A stretch of 64,000 nucleotides of DNA. Source: Enterobacteria phage CHB7. This document shows, piece after piece, positions 2,431 to 11,547 of the stretch. The stretch is taken from sequence record MK562504.1. One strand, written 5' to 3'. How positions within the stretch are numbered: position 1 is the stretch's first letter; every line of letters starts with the position of its first letter. The notes beneath the pieces are model-generated. The model had not been told where the DNA came from and did no database searches. It worked only from the letters and a program-made list of their open reading frames with translations. The position numbers and the translations under genes were made by a program.

Positions 2431-2607
2431 TTATTTCTTAAATCTTTTACCAGAACCTTCACAGAAAGGGCAACAGCCACTTCTGGTAAACCCATGACCA
2501 TCACAGTGTTCACAGCGTTCTGTTTCTACAAAGTATCTGACAATGACAAGAACAAATATTGCTATAATCCCCGTCGATAGGAGTAACTCTACCCAATAAC
2601 CTTGCAT
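2431..2607 (-). CDS. small membrane protein with DnaJ-type zinc finger (58 aa, not in ORF track)
   Basis: Hand translation gives MQGYWVELLLSTGIIAIFVLVIVRYFVETERCEHCDGHGFTRSGCCPFCEGSGKRFKK: one hydrophobic helix then two CxxCxGxG motifs. Overlaps the next ORF by 19 nt. Confidence 0.3.
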   Translation of the reverse strand: MQGYWVELLLSTGIIAIFVLVIVRYFVETERCEHCDGHGFTRSGCCPFCEGSGKRFKK

Positions 2608-2924
2608 AACTTCTCTCCAACATGTTTGTACAGTATGAAACTACGGTCATGAACAATACTTGAGGCAACTGCAAAGTTCTCTTCCAGTATTGCTTTGTTC
2701 GGATTATAGAATCCGTCTAAGAATTGGTCAAGTGCTAATTGGTGATTTTGTGGAAGACCTTTAACATAAATCTTCATAGAAAGCGTGGCAACCACTTCAC
2801 CTTGAAGTTCATCTCGTGCTGCTACCAAGATTTGGTTAATGAACTTGTGACCATCTTCAGGACGTTTAATGTCATCCCAATTCTCTTCCAAGACCATATT
2901 GATATTCATCTGTTTGATTTTCAT
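2589..2924 (-). CDS. hypothetical protein (111 aa)
   Basis: Intact ORF co-oriented with neighbours and tightly packed. Confidence 0.4.
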   Translation of the reverse strand: MKIKQMNINMVLEENWDDIKRPEDGHKFINQILVAARDELQGEVVATLSMKIYVKGLPQNHQLALDQFLDGFYNPNKAILEENFAVASSIVHDRSFILYKHVGEKLCKVIG

Positions 2925-3136
2925 AGAACCTCCACAATAAATTTTTTAAACTTTTTACGCAGCTTTCTGATTTGCTTTTTTGTAGGTTTTACACAAAATT
3001 GATAACTCTCAATAATAGCTTGTCTATCATCAGGCATGTCGGATTCTGTGAACCAAAGCACCCAATAAGATTCTTGATACCCTCCGAAACAACTTTGACT
3101 ACCAGCAGTGAAGTATAAATCTGTGTTGAACTCCAT
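2921..3136 (-). CDS. hypothetical protein (71 aa)
   Basis: ORF with 4-nt overlap to the downstream gene; sits just after a terminator hairpin. Confidence 0.35.
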   Translation of the reverse strand: MEFNTDLYFTAGSQSCFGGYQESYWVLWFTESDMPDDRQAIIESYQFCVKPTKKQIRKLRKKFKKFIVEVL

Positions 3137-3150
3137 AGTCTTCTCCAGAA

Positions 3151-3176
3151 ATTAAAAAGGCTCCCGTAGGAGCCTC
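3151..3176 (-). terminator. intrinsic terminator
   Basis: Hairpin AGGCTCC-CGTA-GGAGCCT followed by a T-run on the minus strand, directly downstream of the NadV-like gene. Confidence 0.5.
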
Positions 3177-3189
3177 TTATAATAATTAT

Positions 3190-5016
3190 TTAAAGCTGTC
3201 TGTCAATAACATTTCGTACATCACGAAGGTTAACGTAGCCATATGGCTGAGAGTCGCAGAATACCAGCTTCAGAGCACACTGAGGGTTATCCAGTACACT
3301 TTCAAACTCTGCAAAACCAAAGCCATCTACAGCTTCCAGCTTATCACCATCCCACATAGGGACTACACCACCAAAAGCCGACTTCTTAAGACCACTGTCA
3401 GTTTTAGGGTCTTTTGCCAGCATGATTTCTTCACCATCCATCTGTGCAAGAGTTGCTTTAACAGCAAATGCAAAGGTATCACGAGTCATGTACTGGTAAG
3501 TATATGAACCAACACCAAAGACAACGTTAGAACTTGCAAAGCCCTTTTCAGCAAGACGGCTAAGAATCTCTTCAGCACGTTCCAAAGTGATAGAATCACC
3601 GTAGATTAAACCAATGTGTTCATCAAGAACTTTGTAGCCTTTAGAGTTTACAGCGCCACCAAAGATGTTGTACAGAGTCTTGATAGCACCATCAATTTCT
3701 GCTGTCAGCATTGGTTTAACAACAACTTGACCAGTCTTGTAAGTATCTTTCAGGTTAACTGTGTCAGCAACGTTAAAGTCTTCTGCATCAACAACCAACT
3801 CATAACCTTCAGAGATTAGCCAAGCAGAGAAGCCATAGCCCATATCTGACATGTTACAATTAAGGATTGCATCAAGCAGATAAGTATTGTTAGGAGAAAT
3901 GGTTGACATGTGTTTGTAATACATACTCTTAGCATTTTCCCATTCAATTGCACGATAGCCAGTAACAATGTGTACAGGGTCACCGGAATCTGGACGGATT
4001 ACCAGTTTACCATCACGTTTCAGGATTACTTCACGGAGTTCTGGAAGAATCTCTGTAACTGTACGCCAGAAGTTGTAAGTATCGGACACAACACTTGTAA
4101 TACCAGTTGGGTAAACATCTACCAGCAGGTGTTCAAATGTTTTAACCTCACCACGCCAGCGTTTAGCATCCAGCAAACTATCAGACTGCATGATGTACTG
4201 TGAGTGGATATCATCTTCTGTCAGGTCTTTCATATTCCATGAAATGTTTGCACACATAACGGAATGTTCAGTTGCTGGAACAGAGTTACCAATATCACTT
4301 ACAGTCATAAACTGACCATATGCACGTTTAGCAGTATACACAGCAGGGAAGCTATCAGTTCCTTTAAAGCTGGTCAAGTGGCCTACAGTATTGAAAGCAT
4401 CATCGGTAAAGCCAGACATACCACGCATTGCAAAGTCATGACACTGCCAAGGAAGATGGAAGTCATTGTCACAGGTCTTGTCAGCCCAAGATTTACAGAT
4501 ACGTTTGTAGTGCAGTGCAATAGTTGCAATGGTACAAGCTTTCCAGATTTCAGCAGAGAAAGCATCTTCCAGATAACCAGCTACCCAATGGAAACCTTCA
4601 ACGGTATTTTTGAAGATAATCATTGGAACACGCATAGGAACAACTGTACCTTCTTCAACAGAGTACACTGCAACTGGCAGATAGCCTAAGTCGTGAAGTT
4701 CTTCCCAATGATGACGCTTGATAGCATCTGCACCAAGAACACCATTCATGATTTCTAAGATTTCATCAACAGCTTCTTTCTTATCACGTTCGAAGAAAGT
4801 TGCGTTCCAATGGTCTACTAAGTAATCTTTAACGAAACGTTGGATACCAAAAGCCACTACACCGTCAATTGCTAAAGGGCTGTTAAACCATTTATCACTA
4901 CGTGGTGTCAGGTTGAACATCAAGTATTCTGTTGCACTAGGATACTGGTAAACATGACCAGATTTGTAAGCATCTGCATTTAAACCTGCTGGTACTGCAT
5001 AAAGTGATTTAGTCAT
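3190..5016 (-). CDS. nadV: nicotinamide phosphoribosyltransferase family protein (NadV/Namat-like), 608 aa with C-terminal extension
   Basis: N-terminus (NADAYKSGHVYQYP) and overall layout match the NAMPT family; it is about 110 aa longer than a typical NadV. Confidence 0.8.
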   Translation of the reverse strand: MTKSLYAVPAGLNADAYKSGHVYQYPSATEYLMFNLTPRSDKWFNSPLAIDGVVAFGIQRFVKDYLVDHWNATFFERDKKEAVDEILEIMNGVLGADAIKRHHWEELHDLGYLPVAVYSVEEGTVVPMRVPMIIFKNTVEGFHWVAGYLEDAFSAEIWKACTIATIALHYKRICKSWADKTCDNDFHLPWQCHDFAMRGMSGFTDDAFNTVGHLTSFKGTDSFPAVYTAKRAYGQFMTVSDIGNSVPATEHSVMCANISWNMKDLTEDDIHSQYIMQSDSLLDAKRWRGEVKTFEHLLVDVYPTGITSVVSDTYNFWRTVTEILPELREVILKRDGKLVIRPDSGDPVHIVTGYRAIEWENAKSMYYKHMSTISPNNTYLLDAILNCNMSDMGYGFSAWLISEGYELVVDAEDFNVADTVNLKDTYKTGQVVVKPMLTAEIDGAIKTLYNIFGGAVNSKGYKVLDEHIGLIYGDSITLERAEEILSRLAEKGFASSNVVFGVGSYTYQYMTRDTFAFAVKATLAQMDGEEIMLAKDPKTDSGLKKSAFGGVVPMWDGDKLEAVDGFGFAEFESVLDNPQCALKLVFCDSQPYGYVNLRDVRNVIDRQL

Positions 5017-5020
5017 CTTT

Positions 5021-5042
5021 TAATCTCTCTCAAAATGGGGCT
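5021..5042 (-). terminator. intrinsic terminator
   Basis: Hairpin GGGGCTT-TT-AAGCCCC with T-rich tail on the minus strand, downstream of the Prs-like gene. Confidence 0.45.
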
Positions 5043-5061
5043 TTTAAGCCCCTATAAAGTT

Positions 5062-5943
5062 TCAATCAAGGTTTGCTACAGTAACTTGACCATAATGTGT
5101 TAAGCCACGGTCTTTAGCTTCCCCTAAAGAGTTTGTAGTGTAGATGTGGTCAATGCCATTGTCAAGAAGGTTTTCAACACCTTTAGAGAAGATACCATGT
5201 GTTACATAAAGCTCAACACGTTTTGCACCTGCTTCACGTAGGTGTTTAGCTGCCTCTACGAAGGTTCGACCACCATCACAGATATCATCAAGAATCATGA
5301 CGGTTTTATCGGTCAAATCAACATCGTCAAGGATTCGCATACCAGTGATTTCTCCAGTCTTAAGATTTCGCACCTTAGACATTGTGATATATGGTTTATC
5401 CACCTCTTTAGCAGTCTCTGCAATCTTCTTAGAAGCACCTGCATCTGGGGCTACTAAGTAATCAATTAGAGGGTCATTTGCATAGTGGACTGCAATCTCC
5501 TTTTGAGGAATACTCTGGAAGCAGTTAAACAGGTTATCTGGTACATAGCTGTGAGGGTCAACTGCACAGACTGCGCCAAACCCCATTGCATTAATCTGTT
5601 TAGCAAAAACCTTTAAAGCTGCTGCGTCACCTTTAAACATGTGACGGTCATATCGTGCATTTGGTAAGTAGTAAAATATGACAGTCTTTAAAGCATAATC
5701 ATGAGGAACTAAATCGTCAATTGCTTCTTTAGCCAGTGCCACAGCAAACAGTGTGTCTTTGTCATAACCCTTTACAATCATAACCACATTGTTAATAGAT
5801 GATGCTGCATAAGCAGTAAAATCAACAAGCTCTTGTGAAAAGTGGCCACCAATCTCACCAGAAGGGAATTGGATGATGTTAAACTCTTCTTCATGAGTTC
5901 CTTTAGTCGGTGAATGAATTGTGACACGGATAGATGTTTTCAT
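5062..5943 (-). CDS. ribose-phosphate pyrophosphokinase family protein (Prs/Adps-like)
   Basis: Phosphoribosyltransferase PRPP-binding motif (VMILDDICDGGRTF) and Prs-like architecture. Start is probably the internal ATG at 5943 (MKTSIRV); the track ORF runs to 5958. Confidence 0.75.
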   Translation of the reverse strand: MKTSIRVTIHSPTKGTHEEEFNIIQFPSGEIGGHFSQELVDFTAYAASSINNVVMIVKGYDKDTLFAVALAKEAIDDLVPHDYALKTVIFYYLPNARYDRHMFKGDAAALKVFAKQINAMGFGAVCAVDPHSYVPDNLFNCFQSIPQKEIAVHYANDPLIDYLVAPDAGASKKIAETAKEVDKPYITMSKVRNLKTGEITGMRILDDVDLTDKTVMILDDICDGGRTFVEAAKHLREAGAKRVELYVTHGIFSKGVENLLDNGIDHIYTTNSLGEAKDRGLTHYGQVTVANLD

Positions 5944-5954
5944 AGTTTTCTCTC

Positions 5955-6233
5955 TCAATCAAAAGTTACGTTTGTTACTGCCATTGCAGATTTGCATTTT
6001 ACAGGGTCTACAACGTGGTAAAGTACACTACAGTTACCTGTGCTGTCTGGTACAGGCTTTACCCATTGCTGCTTTATAGTTGGCTCTCCTAAGTCTTTGT
6101 AAGAACCATCTGTAAAGTTGTTTACCATCTCAAGTGCAATTGGTTCTGGAACATGACCACGTATCATGTACATCTCACAACCATTACCTCCTTCACTGAC
6201 TAATGGTAAAATCTCCCACTTTTCTTTAGCCAT
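5955..6233 (-). CDS. hypothetical protein (about 92 aa)
   Basis: ORF whose ATG (MAKEKW) overlaps the upstream stop by 8 nt, suggesting translational coupling. Confidence 0.4.
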   Translation of the reverse strand: MAKEKWEILPLVSEGGNGCEMYMIRGHVPEPIALEMVNNFTDGSYKDLGEPTIKQQWVKPVPDSTGNCSVLYHVVDPVKCKSAMAVTNVTFD

Positions 6234-6741
6234 TATAAGTTGCCTCATAAACAGTCTTGAACTTCGACAAGAGAGATATTGCCAGAACTGCATATTCCCT
6301 GTCAAGCATTGGTGGCATATTATTTCTTAGATACTCTTTTTGTTCTTCATAAGTCATCTTTGGGGTATCTAAAACCCTCTCACCTTGCTTCTGATTATCA
6401 ATCTTAGTCTGGATAAACCAGTTTGCACAGTGATGCTCACCACCTTTTGTGACTGGCTTGTGATGACCTAGTGTAAAGGCTTGCTTTCCAGAATAACGAC
6501 AAAGCTTGTTAAGGATTGCAATAGTGTTCTTGACAACACAGTACTCATAGAGGTTGTCAATTGTATAGTGAGGGTAGTATGCAAAGAGGGAACTGTCACG
6601 GAACTTCCCACGGTTCCAGAGAACCATGTGATTAGAGTTGGAAGTGTCATACTGATGGGAATCAATGAACTCTTGACGTTCATCAAAGTCAAGTCTTAGA
6701 ACAGACATTGCAGCAGCACGTTTTAAGTTAGATAAGTACAT
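6226..6741 (-). CDS. hypothetical protein with His-rich motif (171 aa)
   Basis: Intact ORF with GHHKPVTKGGEHHC motif; co-directional with and immediately upstream of the NAD module. Confidence 0.45.
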   Translation of the reverse strand: MYLSNLKRAAAMSVLRLDFDERQEFIDSHQYDTSNSNHMVLWNRGKFRDSSLFAYYPHYTIDNLYEYCVVKNTIAILNKLCRYSGKQAFTLGHHKPVTKGGEHHCANWFIQTKIDNQKQGERVLDTPKMTYEEQKEYLRNNMPPMLDREYAVLAISLLSKFKTVYEATYNG

Positions 6742-6760
6742 TTTCTCTCCAAAATAAAAA

Positions 6761-6780
6761 GGGAACCTTTTACAGTTCCC
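6761..6780 (-). terminator. intrinsic terminator
   Basis: Hairpin GGGAAC-CTTTTACA-GTTCCC with an adjacent A-run (T-run on the minus strand). Confidence 0.45.
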
Positions 6781-6793
6781 TAATCATAACTTA

Positions 6794-7105
6794 TTACTGA
6801 AGCTCTTTCAAGACTCTTACAAACTCTTCTTGGGTTACGTCCATCTTGAGTGATTCAGATGGCTTTACAAGGTTGTTTGTGCATACAATCTTCTTGTGCT
6901 TTTTGTCATAAGTCAGCTTCAGTTGATGCAGTTCTTTATCAGACTCATCCTGAGTGTTGTACATCTCAACAGCCTTTTTAAATGGTGTATACTCACCACC
7001 AAAAGATTGGAAGCCTGTACCACAATAATGCGCACCATGTTTGTCATACATGAACTGGCAAAGCATTAAAATCTGAAGCTTACGAGTGTTATAAATCTTG
7101 CTCAT
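6794..7105 (-). CDS. hypothetical protein (103 aa)
   Basis: Intact ORF in the gene-dense minus-strand block. Confidence 0.4.
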   Translation of the reverse strand: MSKIYNTRKLQILMLCQFMYDKHGAHYCGTGFQSFGGEYTPFKKAVEMYNTQDESDKELHQLKLTYDKKHKKIVCTNNLVKPSESLKMDVTQEEFVRVLKELQ

Positions 7106-8706: not shown

Positions 8707-9162
8707 TTACTTAAACCTACAACAATCTTTGTGGAGTTCCTTTCTCAGTTTCTTCATAAAATCAACAGCTTCCTCAAACTTTTCAAATCTTCTTGAAACC
8801 GTTTTCTTGTTATATGTTACTGAAGCTCTCCATCTTCTTCTTGTAGAGTCCCAAGATACACCTTTAAATCCAGTTTTGTTATCCTCTCGCAATTTAGCAT
8901 TGCAAGCATTGTCAACTTTGTTAGAGGCTCTTAGGTTTATCCACCTGTTATCATCCTTGATACCATTTATGTGGTCTACTAATTCAGGAGCATCTTCACC
9001 CATCAAAGTGAAAGCTAATCTATGAGCATACTGTTTTGAACCATCTGGTAGTTCAATTAGTATGTATCCACTAGTTATCCTGCTTCCAGCCACATCTCCA
9101 CTATCTTTCCATCTTATCTCCCCATTATCCGGGTTATAGTCAAGAAAATTAGCTACATACAT
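8707..9162 (-). CDS. HNH homing endonuclease with AP2-type DNA-binding domain
   Basis: HNH core (AHRLAF...VDHINGIKDDNRWINLR) followed by an AP2-like segment (GFKGVSWDSTRRRWRA). Confidence 0.7.
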   Translation of the reverse strand: MYVANFLDYNPDNGEIRWKDSGDVAGSRITSGYILIELPDGSKQYAHRLAFTLMGEDAPELVDHINGIKDDNRWINLRASNKVDNACNAKLREDNKTGFKGVSWDSTRRRWRASVTYNKKTVSRRFEKFEEAVDFMKKLRKELHKDCCRFK

Positions 9163-11294
9163 ACTCTGTCCTTAATTTCTGCAATTTTTGCATCATTCAT
9201 TCTTGAAGTACCTTTTATTTTAGTCCACCCAAGATAACCACAAACACGATTGATAACTGAAATGTCATGTGAATGGCACTTAGGGCACTCATCAACATCT
9301 TCGTTAGGTCTATGTCCACAATTTTCACAGATTGCTAAGTCAAAGTTAACACCTTGATAGAAACCTTTACCCATACCTCGTGAGACACAAGCACTAATAG
9401 CTTTTTTGTTCTCTGGGTTTGCCATTCTAGAGTAAATGATGTGACCACCATTACAGCTATGGAATAAAGGTTCTTCCAAGTCTTGCTTCTGATATGGAGT
9501 AATATCTGCTGCAACGTTCATATGGAAGCTGTTAGTGAAATACTCTTTATCGGAAACATCTTTCACAACACCGAACATGTTACGGAACTGCTTCAATTGC
9601 GTCCCACAAAGGCTCTCAGCAGGTGTACCGTAAAGGGCATACAAGAAGCCATCTTGCTCTTTAAAGTGCGCCAGACGGTCATTCAGGTAGTCCAGAACTT
9701 GCTGTGCAATCACTTTCTGAGATTCATGTAGTCTACCTTCCCCAGCTAGTACAGAGAGTTCATCAAGTGCAGTTACACCGAAAGAAGCTGTGAAGGATTT
9801 CACAGTATCCCAACCAATTTTATCAGTTGGTTTCTTACCCCCTTTGTACAGGCCACCTTGTGTAAATGCCAGAGGGTTTGAACTTGCTGGCATGTTAGCA
9901 ATCATCTCATAGCGTTTCTTATGGAAGCTGCGAATCATTTCAAGGTATTTGTCAAGCTCTTTCCAGAAGTCTAAGCCGTTCTCTTTAGCATACTGGTAAA
10001 TCATTGGCAAGTTCAAAGATACTGCACCAATATTTGCACGACCAACGTAGAACTCTTCCCCGTTTTCGTCATAGTATGGAGACAGGAAAGCTCGACAACC
10101 CATCGGTGAAATCACCTTACCAGAACGTTCAAAAGCTTCTGCAACAGCACCATGACCAGATACACTCAAGAAGTCTGGGTACATCGCTTTAGAGCAACAC
10201 TCAATAGCTTTATTGTACAGTTGGCCTTGACAGATATCTTCACTGTGTCTTGTATGGTCATGAATGTAAACCAATTTAGGGAACACAACAGGTTTCTTGT
10301 TCTTACCTTGACCATTCATACGAACATCAAGAATAGTGTTTGCAATCATGTACTGAAGACGGTTATCTTCATCAGCCATATCTGAACCAAGTAAACCAAA
10401 TGTTAAAGTTGTGAATGCAAAGTCACCACGGCTGCAAGGTACAGTGTTCAGCTTCATCTCCAGTGACTGGAAACCTTGAGTTAGTTCAATCTGTAACTGT
10501 TCCATTACATAGTTGTAGTAATGTTCTTTGGGAATCCCATAAGAAGTTGCTTTCTCAGCATGGTAACGTAGAGACTTCTTAGCGTATGGCACAAGAATCT
10601 TGTCAATCTCTGGGATTGTAAAACCACCAAATTGCTGTGCAGTTGCTGACAATACAACATCACCGATAACCTGTAAAGCTGACAGAACAGACTTCGGTTC
10701 ACAGTACTCAATACCAGACATTTCAAAGCCACCTTTCAGGACTTTACCAATGTCAAATAGGCAACAGTTAATCCCACCAAATACCAAATCTCTCAGGTCG
10801 TGAATGTAGATGAAACCTGCCTCAATAGCTTCAAGTTCTTCTGGTGTCAAGTGATATTGCTTAAAGATTTCTTTAGTCAGGTATCCACGAATGATAGAAC
10901 CTTTTGTAGAGATTAAGCTACTGTCAAAGTTAGCATTCTCACGGTCACCTAAGAAGAGGGTGTCTTTAGTCTTCTGATAGAGTTCATCCCAATTCTGTGC
11001 AACTTCTTTACGGTAGTTACGGTAGGTTGAGTAAGATTCGTAAATCTCGTGATTAACTTCTGCTAAAGCCCCTTCAACAATACTGTGAATGTCATCTACA
11101 GAAATCAGTAAAGCATTCTGGTTAGAAGCCTTTACAAGAATCCGCATAAAAGCTGACTCAAGAGCATGAACAACTTCTAACGGGAGTTCTTTATAGCCAA
11201 CTCGGTTAGCTGATTTTGTAACTGCTGCTAGGACTTTCTTAATATCTGGTTCTTCAAGTGAGCCATTCTTTTTAATAATTTGTACTTTGACCAT
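9153..11294 (-). CDS. nrdD: anaerobic ribonucleoside-triphosphate reductase (class III)
   Basis: ATP-cone N-terminus, C-terminal glycyl-radical motif (RVCGY) and zinc-ribbon cysteines. Start reassigned to ATG at 11294 (MVKVQII), preceded by an AAGGAG ribosome-binding site. Confidence 0.85.
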   Translation of the reverse strand: MVKVQIIKKNGSLEEPDIKKVLAAVTKSANRVGYKELPLEVVHALESAFMRILVKASNQNALLISVDDIHSIVEGALAEVNHEIYESYSTYRNYRKEVAQNWDELYQKTKDTLFLGDRENANFDSSLISTKGSIIRGYLTKEIFKQYHLTPEELEAIEAGFIYIHDLRDLVFGGINCCLFDIGKVLKGGFEMSGIEYCEPKSVLSALQVIGDVVLSATAQQFGGFTIPEIDKILVPYAKKSLRYHAEKATSYGIPKEHYYNYVMEQLQIELTQGFQSLEMKLNTVPCSRGDFAFTTLTFGLLGSDMADEDNRLQYMIANTILDVRMNGQGKNKKPVVFPKLVYIHDHTRHSEDICQGQLYNKAIECCSKAMYPDFLSVSGHGAVAEAFERSGKVISPMGCRAFLSPYYDENGEEFYVGRANIGAVSLNLPMIYQYAKENGLDFWKELDKYLEMIRSFHKKRYEMIANMPASSNPLAFTQGGLYKGGKKPTDKIGWDTVKSFTASFGVTALDELSVLAGEGRLHESQKVIAQQVLDYLNDRLAHFKEQDGFLYALYGTPAESLCGTQLKQFRNMFGVVKDVSDKEYFTNSFHMNVAADITPYQKQDLEEPLFHSCNGGHIIYSRMANPENKKAISACVSRGMGKGFYQGVNFDLAICENCGHRPNEDVDECPKCHSHDISVINRVCGYLGWTKIKGTSRMNDAKIAEIKDRVCM

Positions 11295-11310
11295 TTGTGC
11301 TCCTTTGTAT

Positions 11311-11334
11311 ACGAAAAAGGTCTCCGAAGAGACC
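11311..11334 (-). terminator. intrinsic terminator
   Basis: Hairpin GGTCTC-CGAAGA-GACC with adjacent A-run; a near-identical hairpin recurs at 15425. Confidence 0.5.
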
Positions 11335-11340
11335 CTTATA

Positions 11341-11547
11341 TTAATTCTTTTTGAAAATCTTCTCAACAAACTTTTTGAGTTTGCCGCTAATGTCAAGATG
11401 GATTTCTAGAATCTCAAAGATTACCCATACTAGCATAGCACCAAACAAAGCACCTTGTTTGATATCAATAAATAGGTTCACAAAGAAGAAACCGAGTACA
11501 ATCATCGGTGCATCAACTGTGAAACCTTCCCACAAACGCTTAAGCAT
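11341..11547 (-). CDS. small hydrophobic membrane protein (68 aa)
   Basis: Translation is dominated by hydrophobic stretches (VLGFFFVNLFIDI, FGAMLVWVIF). Confidence 0.35.
   Translation of the reverse strand: MLKRLWEGFTVDAPMIVLGFFFVNLFIDIKQGALFGAMLVWVIFEILEIHLDISGKLKKFVEKIFKKN

Follow-up and report, generated by a model that had tools for sequence, protein, structure and literature searches.

How would a phage use a protein resembling ribose-phosphate pyrophosphokinase (Prs) that is encoded beside a protein of the nicotinamide phosphoribosyltransferase (NAMPT) family: for the ordinary salvage of nicotinamide adenine dinucleotide (NAD+), or for rebuilding NAD+ that a host defence has destroyed? 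We addressed this question for such a gene pair in Enterobacteria phage CHB7 (MK562504.1), using a 64-kb stretch of the ~87-kb genome, here called the window. The window was assigned to Ounavirinae (Felix O1 group), with Suspvirus EcSzw-2 as its nearest relative; a search of phage records with the 4-kb region around the pair returned 258 matches, all from the Felix O1 group and headed by EcSzw-2 (89% nucleotide identity). Four co-directional minus-strand open reading frames (ORFs) encode proteins of 171 and 92 amino acids (aa), the Prs-like protein, and a 608-aa NAMPT-like protein; as an earlier note on this DNA had described, the Prs-like ORF adjoins the NAMPT-like ORF in the same orientation, lying directly upstream of it. 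Their surroundings are an early/metabolic block of Ounavirinae, with rIIA (1–2367) on one side, and nrdG, nrdD, grx, and nrdB on the other. We conclude that the pair is very probably a NARP1 (Adps + Namat) anti-defence operon of an Ounavirinae phage, on the evidence of orthology, gene order, fold, catalytic residues, and the signature of a substrate clamp.

NARP1 was found as “operon 79-80” of Felixounavirus Bas63/JohannRWettstein (Osterman et al., bioRxiv 10.1101/2024.02.11.579819). Deletion of Bas63 genes 79-80 resulted in ~20-fold greater sensitivity to SIR2-HerA and harsher NAD+ depletion; the pyrophosphorylated form of ADP-ribose (ADPR-PP; m/z 720.010) appeared in defence-carrying cells only with wild-type Bas63; the counter-defence was independent of host pncC and nadR; and the homologues from Bacillus phage SPbetaL1 convert ADP-ribose (ADPR) and ATP to ADPR-PP, and ADPR-PP and nicotinamide to NAD+ (bioRxiv 10.1101/2024.02.11.579819). 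These Bas63 and SPbetaL1 results are the basis on which we infer the chemistry and the anti-defence phenotype of the CHB7 pair. NAD+ would be split into ADPR and nicotinamide by a host defence that depletes it (SIR2-HerA, type I Thoeris, DSR1/2, SEFIR, or similar); Adps, consuming ATP, would pyrophosphorylate ADPR at its free ribose C1'', giving ADPR-PP; and Namat would exchange the pyrophosphate for nicotinamide, yielding NAD+ directly, without nicotinamide mononucleotide (NMN) or NMN adenylyltransferase (NMNAT).

The Prs-like protein

Membership of the smaller protein in the Prs family, claimed previously from the sequence, is borne out by profile searches, which gave Pfam matches to Pribosyltran (E 3.5e-11) and Pribosyl_synth (E 1.8e-9) and a match to PHROG 619 (E 1e-97). 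The protein is 78% identical over its full length to Bas63 gp79 (the NARP1 Adps), and its identity to SPbetaL1 Adps, an enzyme with characterised biochemistry, is 35% (E 9e-29); canonical Prs enzymes are less similar, with E 5.6e-18 for the best Prs in the PDB and ~1e-11 for E. coli or human Prs. Among NCBIfam models, it clears only the cut-off of the broad subfamily TIGR01251 (120 vs 113 bits) and misses every Prs equivalog cut-off (e.g., 104.6 vs 296 bits), as expected for a diverged Prs subfamily. Judged by these identities and profile scores, the protein belongs with the phage Adps clade and not with canonical Prs. NCBIfam and PADLOC hold no dedicated Adps or Namat models, offering only generic Prs/NAPRTase families or weak matches to phosphoribosyltransferase domains, and the PDB holds no solved Adps structure, its matches being canonical Prs enzymes only.

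K190 of the CHB7 protein aligns with the catalytic K162 of SPbetaL1 Adps (K197 in B. subtilis Prs), and an alignment to Prs 4TWB shows that the DPH, PDxGA, and DDxxxGG motifs typical of Prs have been retained. We take the ATG at 5943 to be the real adps start, because it is preceded by GAGAGAGAA and the resulting 293 aa match the annotations of Bas63 and EcSzw-2; a TTG at 5958, proposed by a mechanical ORF list, was rejected in its favour. A Namat homologue is encoded in the immediate vicinity for 97% of the Adps clade, and in the window the two genes share a strand, with 45 nt from the adps stop to the namat start.

The NAMPT-like protein

The 608-aa protein had been placed in the NAMPT family, and its ORF (3190–5016) indeed matches the Pfam families NAPRTase and NAMPT_N as well as PHROG 448 (E 1e-195). 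It shares 77% identity with Bas63 gp80 and 97% with the Namat of EcSzw-2. Its top sequence match in the PDB is SPbetaL1 Namat (E 4e-124), crystallised with nicotinamide (9W5X) and with NAD+ (9W5W) (PMC12774641, 2026), and lower matches are H. ducreyi NadV (1e-99), a Xanthomonas Nampt (5e-50), and human NAMPT (~1e-38). By fold, too, 9W5X is the best match to an AlphaFold2 model of the protein (predicted local distance difference test score 91.1); the TM-score is 0.94 with normalisation to the target and 0.75 with normalisation to the query.

The features that distinguish Namat from Nampt, including a conserved Nampt-like core, have been defined (PMC12774641). In the CHB7 protein, the aligned core residues D15, Y17, F195, R198, D221, H251, R341, D343, and G473-D474 are invariant across 35 homologues; among them, F195, R198, D221, H251, R341, and D343 correspond to F189, R192, D215, the catalytic His, R306, and D308 of SPbetaL1 Namat. 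The selectivity-clamp helix motif (SCH) GSYTYQYMTRD (residues 503–513) aligns with GSFTYQYNTRD of 9W5W; Y505 and Y509 are its aromatic residues, and its phi1, phi2, and phi3 positions are Thr, Gln, and Met, respectively, so that only phi3 departs from the Namat consensus. For the selectivity-clamp loop (SCL), the third residue is Arg, Lys, or Tyr, and the loop supplies a stacking residue; in Bas63 Namat, with Lys/Tyr at the third position, it is the next (fourth) loop residue that stacks on adenine (PMC12774641). The SCL of the CHB7 protein contains PRSDKWF, in which K42 is the third loop residue and is followed by W43, and residues 1–60 are identical in Bas63 Namat. The adenine clamp is needed only for the reaction with ADPR-PP (PMC12774641).

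Insertions in Namat

An unusual C-terminal extension of ~110 aa had been proposed for the NAMPT-like protein, and this proposal does not hold: the alignments to SPbetaL1 Namat (9W5W/9W5X), PHROG 448, and Bas63 all run through to the C-terminal end. The alignment to 9W5W/9W5X consists of three blocks (5–257, 290–354, and 442–601), and the ~115 extra residues therefore form two internal insertions (~258–289 and ~355–441). The first is located a few residues past the catalytic His251 segment and is 14 residues shorter in Bas63 according to a multiple alignment, and the second, of ~87 residues, follows the RPDSG strand that bears R341/D343. Both are present, with variable length, in the longer (542–614 aa) phage homologues that were aligned, including Bas63, and absent from SPbetaL1 Namat (491 aa) and from the aligned 496-aa enterobacterial homologues. 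Since the insertions are shared by the founding Bas63 enzyme and the longer phage homologues, a length of 608 aa is normal for the clade.

We infer that both insertions lie on the catalytic face of the barrel, because each exits the barrel a few residues past H251 or R341/D343. Insertion 2 has a confident predicted fold for which no structural relative was found. It is possible, although doubtful, that this insertion is a functional module that may dock Adps for the hand-over of ADPR-PP, or gate or regulate the entrance to the active site; SPbetaL1 Namat, which is without these insertions, shows no stable binding of its Adps. If insertion 2 does have such a role, recombinants such as the CHB7 module (Felixounavirus adps and Suspvirus namat) would show which combinations of partners are compatible.

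NARP1 and alternative roles of the pair

The earlier note had preferred NARP1 over a combination of NadV and NMNAT, partly because it saw no NMNAT signature (HxGH) in the window. This preference is upheld by the orthology to Bas63 genes 79-80, the clamp signature, and the position of 9W5X/9W5W as best structure, and also by the motif itself: a six-frame scan of stop-to-stop segments of at least 60 aa, used in place of a tblastn search with KVP40-type NatV, found no H.GH motif in the 64-kb window. The annotation of the complete Bas63 genome includes no NMNAT, and no phage has been reported with both NARP1 and NARP2, a pathway that includes an Nmnat.

Were the GenBank annotation to be followed, the Prs-like protein would form phosphoribosyl pyrophosphate (PRPP) from ribose-5-phosphate, the NadV-like protein would combine this with nicotinamide into NMN, and the host NadR/PncC route would complete the synthesis of NAD+; we regard such classical salvage as very improbable. 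The public records do name a ribose-phosphate pyrophosphokinase and a nicotinamide phosphoribosyltransferase, and Pfam and NCBIfam do place the two proteins in those families, but Adps is below all Prs equivalog cut-offs, and SPbetaL1 Adps converted ADPR while yielding no product in a Prs test reaction. Similarly, although SPbetaL1 Namat keeps about half of the NMN-forming activity of human NAMPT in vitro, Namat favours ADPR-PP when both donors are offered, and the CHB7 Namat possesses the adenine clamp that only the ADPR-PP reaction requires. Completion by the host is further disfavoured by the finding that Bas63 overcame SIR2-HerA even in a pncC nadR double-mutant host. More remote still is a role unrelated to defence, in which the pair, together with the ribonucleotide reductase block, would raise PRPP or NAD+ to serve DNA synthesis by the phage in general; the genes do directly follow nrdA/B, grx, nrdD, and nrdG, but NARP1 phages gave no rise in NAD+ in defence-free cells, ADPR-PP appeared only under active defence, and uninfected cells contain little of the substrate ADPR.

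Several points weigh against the identification of the pair as NARP1. The phi3 residue of the clamp is Met, whereas the published residues are mainly Asn or Val (PMC12774641). Namat enzymes also form NMN from PRPP in vitro, so that a side role in ordinary salvage could still be envisaged for the CHB7 enzyme. The NMNAT scan covered the window, and the ~23 kb of the ~87-kb genome outside it were not searched. The adps/namat combination is recombinant (Felixounavirus-type adps with mostly Suspvirus-type namat), and its function in this exact pairing is putative. The NARP1 reading is correct but already known, and the nearest relatives of the pair have been catalogued: in the tables of the discovery paper, EcSzw-2, SUSP2, and mistaenkt each have a Namat classed as “Adps-associated” and an Adps recorded with a Namat neighbour.

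Mosaic origin of the locus

Parentage was assessed by sliding-window comparison with EcSzw-2, Escherichia phage ULIM3, and Bas63, with identities computed per 100-nt step (Table 1). By this comparison the NARP1 module is a chimera between genera, in which a Felixounavirus-type patch (6250–4850) is set in a Suspvirus backbone. This mosaic parentage explains why the 92-aa protein is 99% identical to Bas63 gp78 while its neighbours are at 77–79%, and it likewise accounts for the 99.3% identity between Adps and its ULIM3 counterpart. Strong selection, which might be read from the conservation of the 92-aa protein, was rejected as an explanation: nucleotide identity is also 97–98%, and the segment 6250–4850 changes parentage, which indicates recombination.

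The ULIM3 record (OQ850289; 5391–5882 of the compared stretch) has an HNH endonuclease gene exactly between adps and namat, a position occupied in the window by the 45-nt spacer with its hairpin only. It is plausible that an HNH endonuclease of the ULIM3 type drives gene (co-)conversion around the adps–namat junction.

Transcription unit and upstream ORFs

Each gene of the pair had been credited with its own terminator hairpin, which is partly borne out. The hairpin after namat (3178–3155) is strong, with a 10-bp stem containing five GC pairs, a T-run, and a folding energy of −17 kcal/mol (z −4.05) that none of 200 shuffles equalled. The hairpin after adps is weak, comprising 6 bp followed by AUUUUG (−11.5 kcal/mol, z −2.3), and is under the threshold of the terminator scan; it is probably leaky and internal to the operon, because the Bas63 pair is described as a single operon. 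A further site just 5' of the 171-aa ORF (6781–6760) has an 8-bp stem and a T-run (−14.4 kcal/mol, z −3.5) and is likely to be the upstream boundary of the transcription unit; thus, all four ORFs may share one transcription unit. A near-consensus sigma-70-like site, TTGACA-16-TATTAT (3206–3179), overlaps the end of namat.

The two small ORFs pointed out previously as potential accessory parts are both present, with 92 and 171 aa. The 92-aa ORF had no match in any library (Pfam, NCBIfam, and PADLOC included), and the gene is restricted to Ounavirinae (230 records). The 171-aa ORF, 79% identical to Bas63 gp77, carries GHHKPVTKGGEHHC and belongs to a family with an HH...GG...N motif; it has a weak PHROG match to HNH (E 4e-4), some records give the family an HNH annotation, and it had no match in Pfam, NCBIfam, or PADLOC and nothing in a PDB search (best E 0.9).

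A four-gene module, in which the 171-aa HNH-like and 92-aa proteins would be NARP1 accessories analogous to the phosphatase Adpp or the glycosidase RyDEP of extended NARP1 operons, appears improbable to us. Accessory genes within NARP1 operons have precedent, but Pfam, NCBIfam, and PADLOC revealed no Macro, RyR, or other ADPR-related domain in either ORF. The four ORFs run in one direction at close spacing, with stops that overlap or adjoin starts, and are bounded by the terminator-like sites at 6781–6760 and 3178–3155, in an order that recurs in Bas63 and the other Ounavirinae records inspected; the link to NARP1, however, goes no further than this Ounavirinae gene order. In Justusliebigvirus Antha, the 171-aa homologue lies ~73 kb from adps–namat, beside ribonucleotide reductase and helicase genes, and Yersinia phage P778 has other small ORFs in place of the Ounavirinae-only 92-aa gene. 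Moreover, counter-defence by Bas63 was lost on deletion of genes 79-80 alone, and published two-gene operons suffice in heterologous hosts. On these gene-order comparisons, we treat both small ORFs as neighbours that hold their position only within Ounavirinae, and not as parts of the two-gene NARP1.

Table 1. Coordinates of features and of segments of differing parentage at the CHB7 locus (positions in the window).
Feature	Position	Strand	Basis
adps, putative ADP-ribose pyrophosphokinase (Prs-family), 293 aa, ATG start	5062..5943	-	Pfam, PHROG 619, Bas63 gp79, SPbetaL1 Adps
namat, putative nicotinamide ADP-ribose transferase (NAMPT-family), 608 aa	3190..5016	-	Bas63 gp80, 9W5W/9W5X, AlphaFold2 model, EcSzw-2 Namat
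Namat SCH, residues 503–513, GSYTYQYMTRD	3478..3510	-	alignment to 9W5W
Namat SCL, residues 38–51, PRSDKWFNSPLAID	4864..4905	-	residues 1–60 identical to Bas63
Namat internal insertion 1, ~residues 258–289	4150..4245	-	unaligned to 9W5W/9W5X
Namat internal insertion 2, ~residues 355–441, folded alpha/beta subdomain after R341/D343 strand	3694..3954	-	
Hairpin between adps and namat, GGGGCU-UAAA-AGCCCC then AUUUUG	5037..5052	-	folding energy, terminator scan
Intrinsic terminator-like hairpin and T-run 3' of namat	3155..3178	-	terminator scan, shuffles
Terminator-like hairpin 5' of 171-aa ORF	6760..6781	-	terminator scan, folding energy
92-aa ORF, homologue of Bas63 gp78	5955..6233	-	upstream neighbour between same terminators
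171-aa ORF, HNH-like motif, homologue of Bas63 gp77	6226..6741	-	upstream neighbour
Segment: upstream ORFs	7450–6250		EcSzw-2-like, 87–100%
Segment: 92-aa ORF and entire adps	6250–5050		Felixounavirus ULIM3 92–100%; EcSzw-2 only 66–83%
Segment: intergenic region and first ~55 namat codons	5050–4850		Bas63 97%; EcSzw-2 78–85%
Segment: remaining namat and downstream	4850–2650		EcSzw-2-like, 91–100% where aligned; no match 3150–2951

Other observations and significance

The slot downstream of namat is variable: in the window it holds a 71-aa DUF7279 ORF (2921–3136, minus strand) that is present in only 23 phage records and for which blastn gave no match in EcSzw-2, ULIM3, or Bas63, whose slot holds other small genes. 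Between the nrdD (9153–11396) and nrdG regions, a 151-aa ORF (8707–9162, minus strand) resembles the free-standing homing-endonuclease genes that are variably placed in relatives (Bas63 gp68 inside nrdD; P778 ORF098 and ORF103). Several records named for Campylobacter phages (A132, A126, and A150) or for Staphylococcus phage SA1 contain near-identical Ounavirinae/Justusliebigvirus genes; these host labels or records are probably mis-assigned or contaminated.

The practical value of the identification lies in annotation, as GenBank still names the genes Prs and NadV, and in a predicted host range: CHB7 should resist defences that convert NAD+ to ADPR and nicotinamide (SIR2-HerA, type I Thoeris, DSR, and SEFIR). 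Of minor interest are the insertion subdomain of Namat and the exchange of adps/namat alleles between Ounavirinae genera.

Comparison with known systems

The closest known system is the NARP1 of Bas63 (MZ501086), in which gp77 (171 aa), gp78 (92 aa), gp79 (Adps, 293 aa), and gp80 (Namat, 593 aa) are followed by small ORFs and rIIA. The CHB7 phage is of the same subfamily and has the same gene order (nrdD/nrdG, gp77, gp78, adps, namat, rIIA), and its pair has the same architecture, with both Namat insertions, an identical SCL, and the same clamp motif. It differs from Bas63 in its Suspvirus-like backbone, in an adps allele of the ULIM3/HY02 type, in a Namat insertion 1 that is longer by 14 residues, and in the small gene downstream of namat. 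The SPbetaL1 system shares with it the Namat fold, catalytic core, and clamp motif and the catalytic Lys of Adps, and by this likeness the same two-enzyme chemistry would operate in CHB7; however, SPbetaL1 Namat (491 aa) is without both insertions and has Arg40 in the clamp loop where the CHB7 enzyme has K42-W43, and the Adps proteins are only 35% identical.

The NARP2 system of Vibrio phage KVP40 also includes a NAMPT-family enzyme and likewise restores NAD+ during infection, but it combines Nampt with a bifunctional Nmnat/Nudix protein and uses PRPP, whereas the window has no HxGH motif and does encode Adps; KVP40-type Nampts are only ~28% identical to the CHB7 Namat. The record of phi-Grn1 mislabels its Nampt.

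Extended NARP1 operons have the same adps–namat core and include NARP1-AP of Vibrio phage Gary, with the Macro-domain phosphatase Adpp directed against aRES, and that of mycobacteriophage DyoEdafos, with the RyR-domain glycosidase RyDEP directed against cyclic ADP-ribose (cADPR) signals. In contrast, no Macro or RyR (PF02026) protein adjoins the CHB7 operon: none was found with Pfam, PHROGs, NCBIfam, or PADLOC in the ORFs at 2589–3136 and 5955–7105, in a search that covered the operon-flanking ORFs and in which the 58-aa ORF at 2431–2607 was compared with PHROGs only. Because its operon is without the Adpp phosphatase, CHB7 is predicted to be sensitive to aRES-type cleavage of NAD+.

A related pair is encoded on the chromosome of Klebsiella michiganensis (GCA_023685665.1; 2211–5491 of the compared stretch), where a Prs-like gene (48% identity at the protein level to that of the window) is directly followed by a gene for a 496-aa Namat homologue (~45% identity). 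The aligned 496-aa enterobacterial homologues (e.g., P0066) have the Namat-type motif GSFTYQYNTRD, like the CHB7 enzyme, and are without the Namat insertions. Unlike the phage pair, the K. michiganensis pair is chromosomal and divergent from a gene for an NrtR-type regulator (Nudix + WHD_NrtR). Loci for comparison are the nrtR/prs-like/nadV-like genes of Enterobacteriaceae in the NrtR regulon (PMC2330246) and bacterial NARP1 (PMC12774641), and the NrtR regulator family has been reported to respond to ADPR; the literature searched contained no paper that names NrtR together with NARP1. Judging from the encoded proteins and their arrangement, the K. michiganensis locus looks like a chromosomal NARP1 under an NrtR-type regulator.

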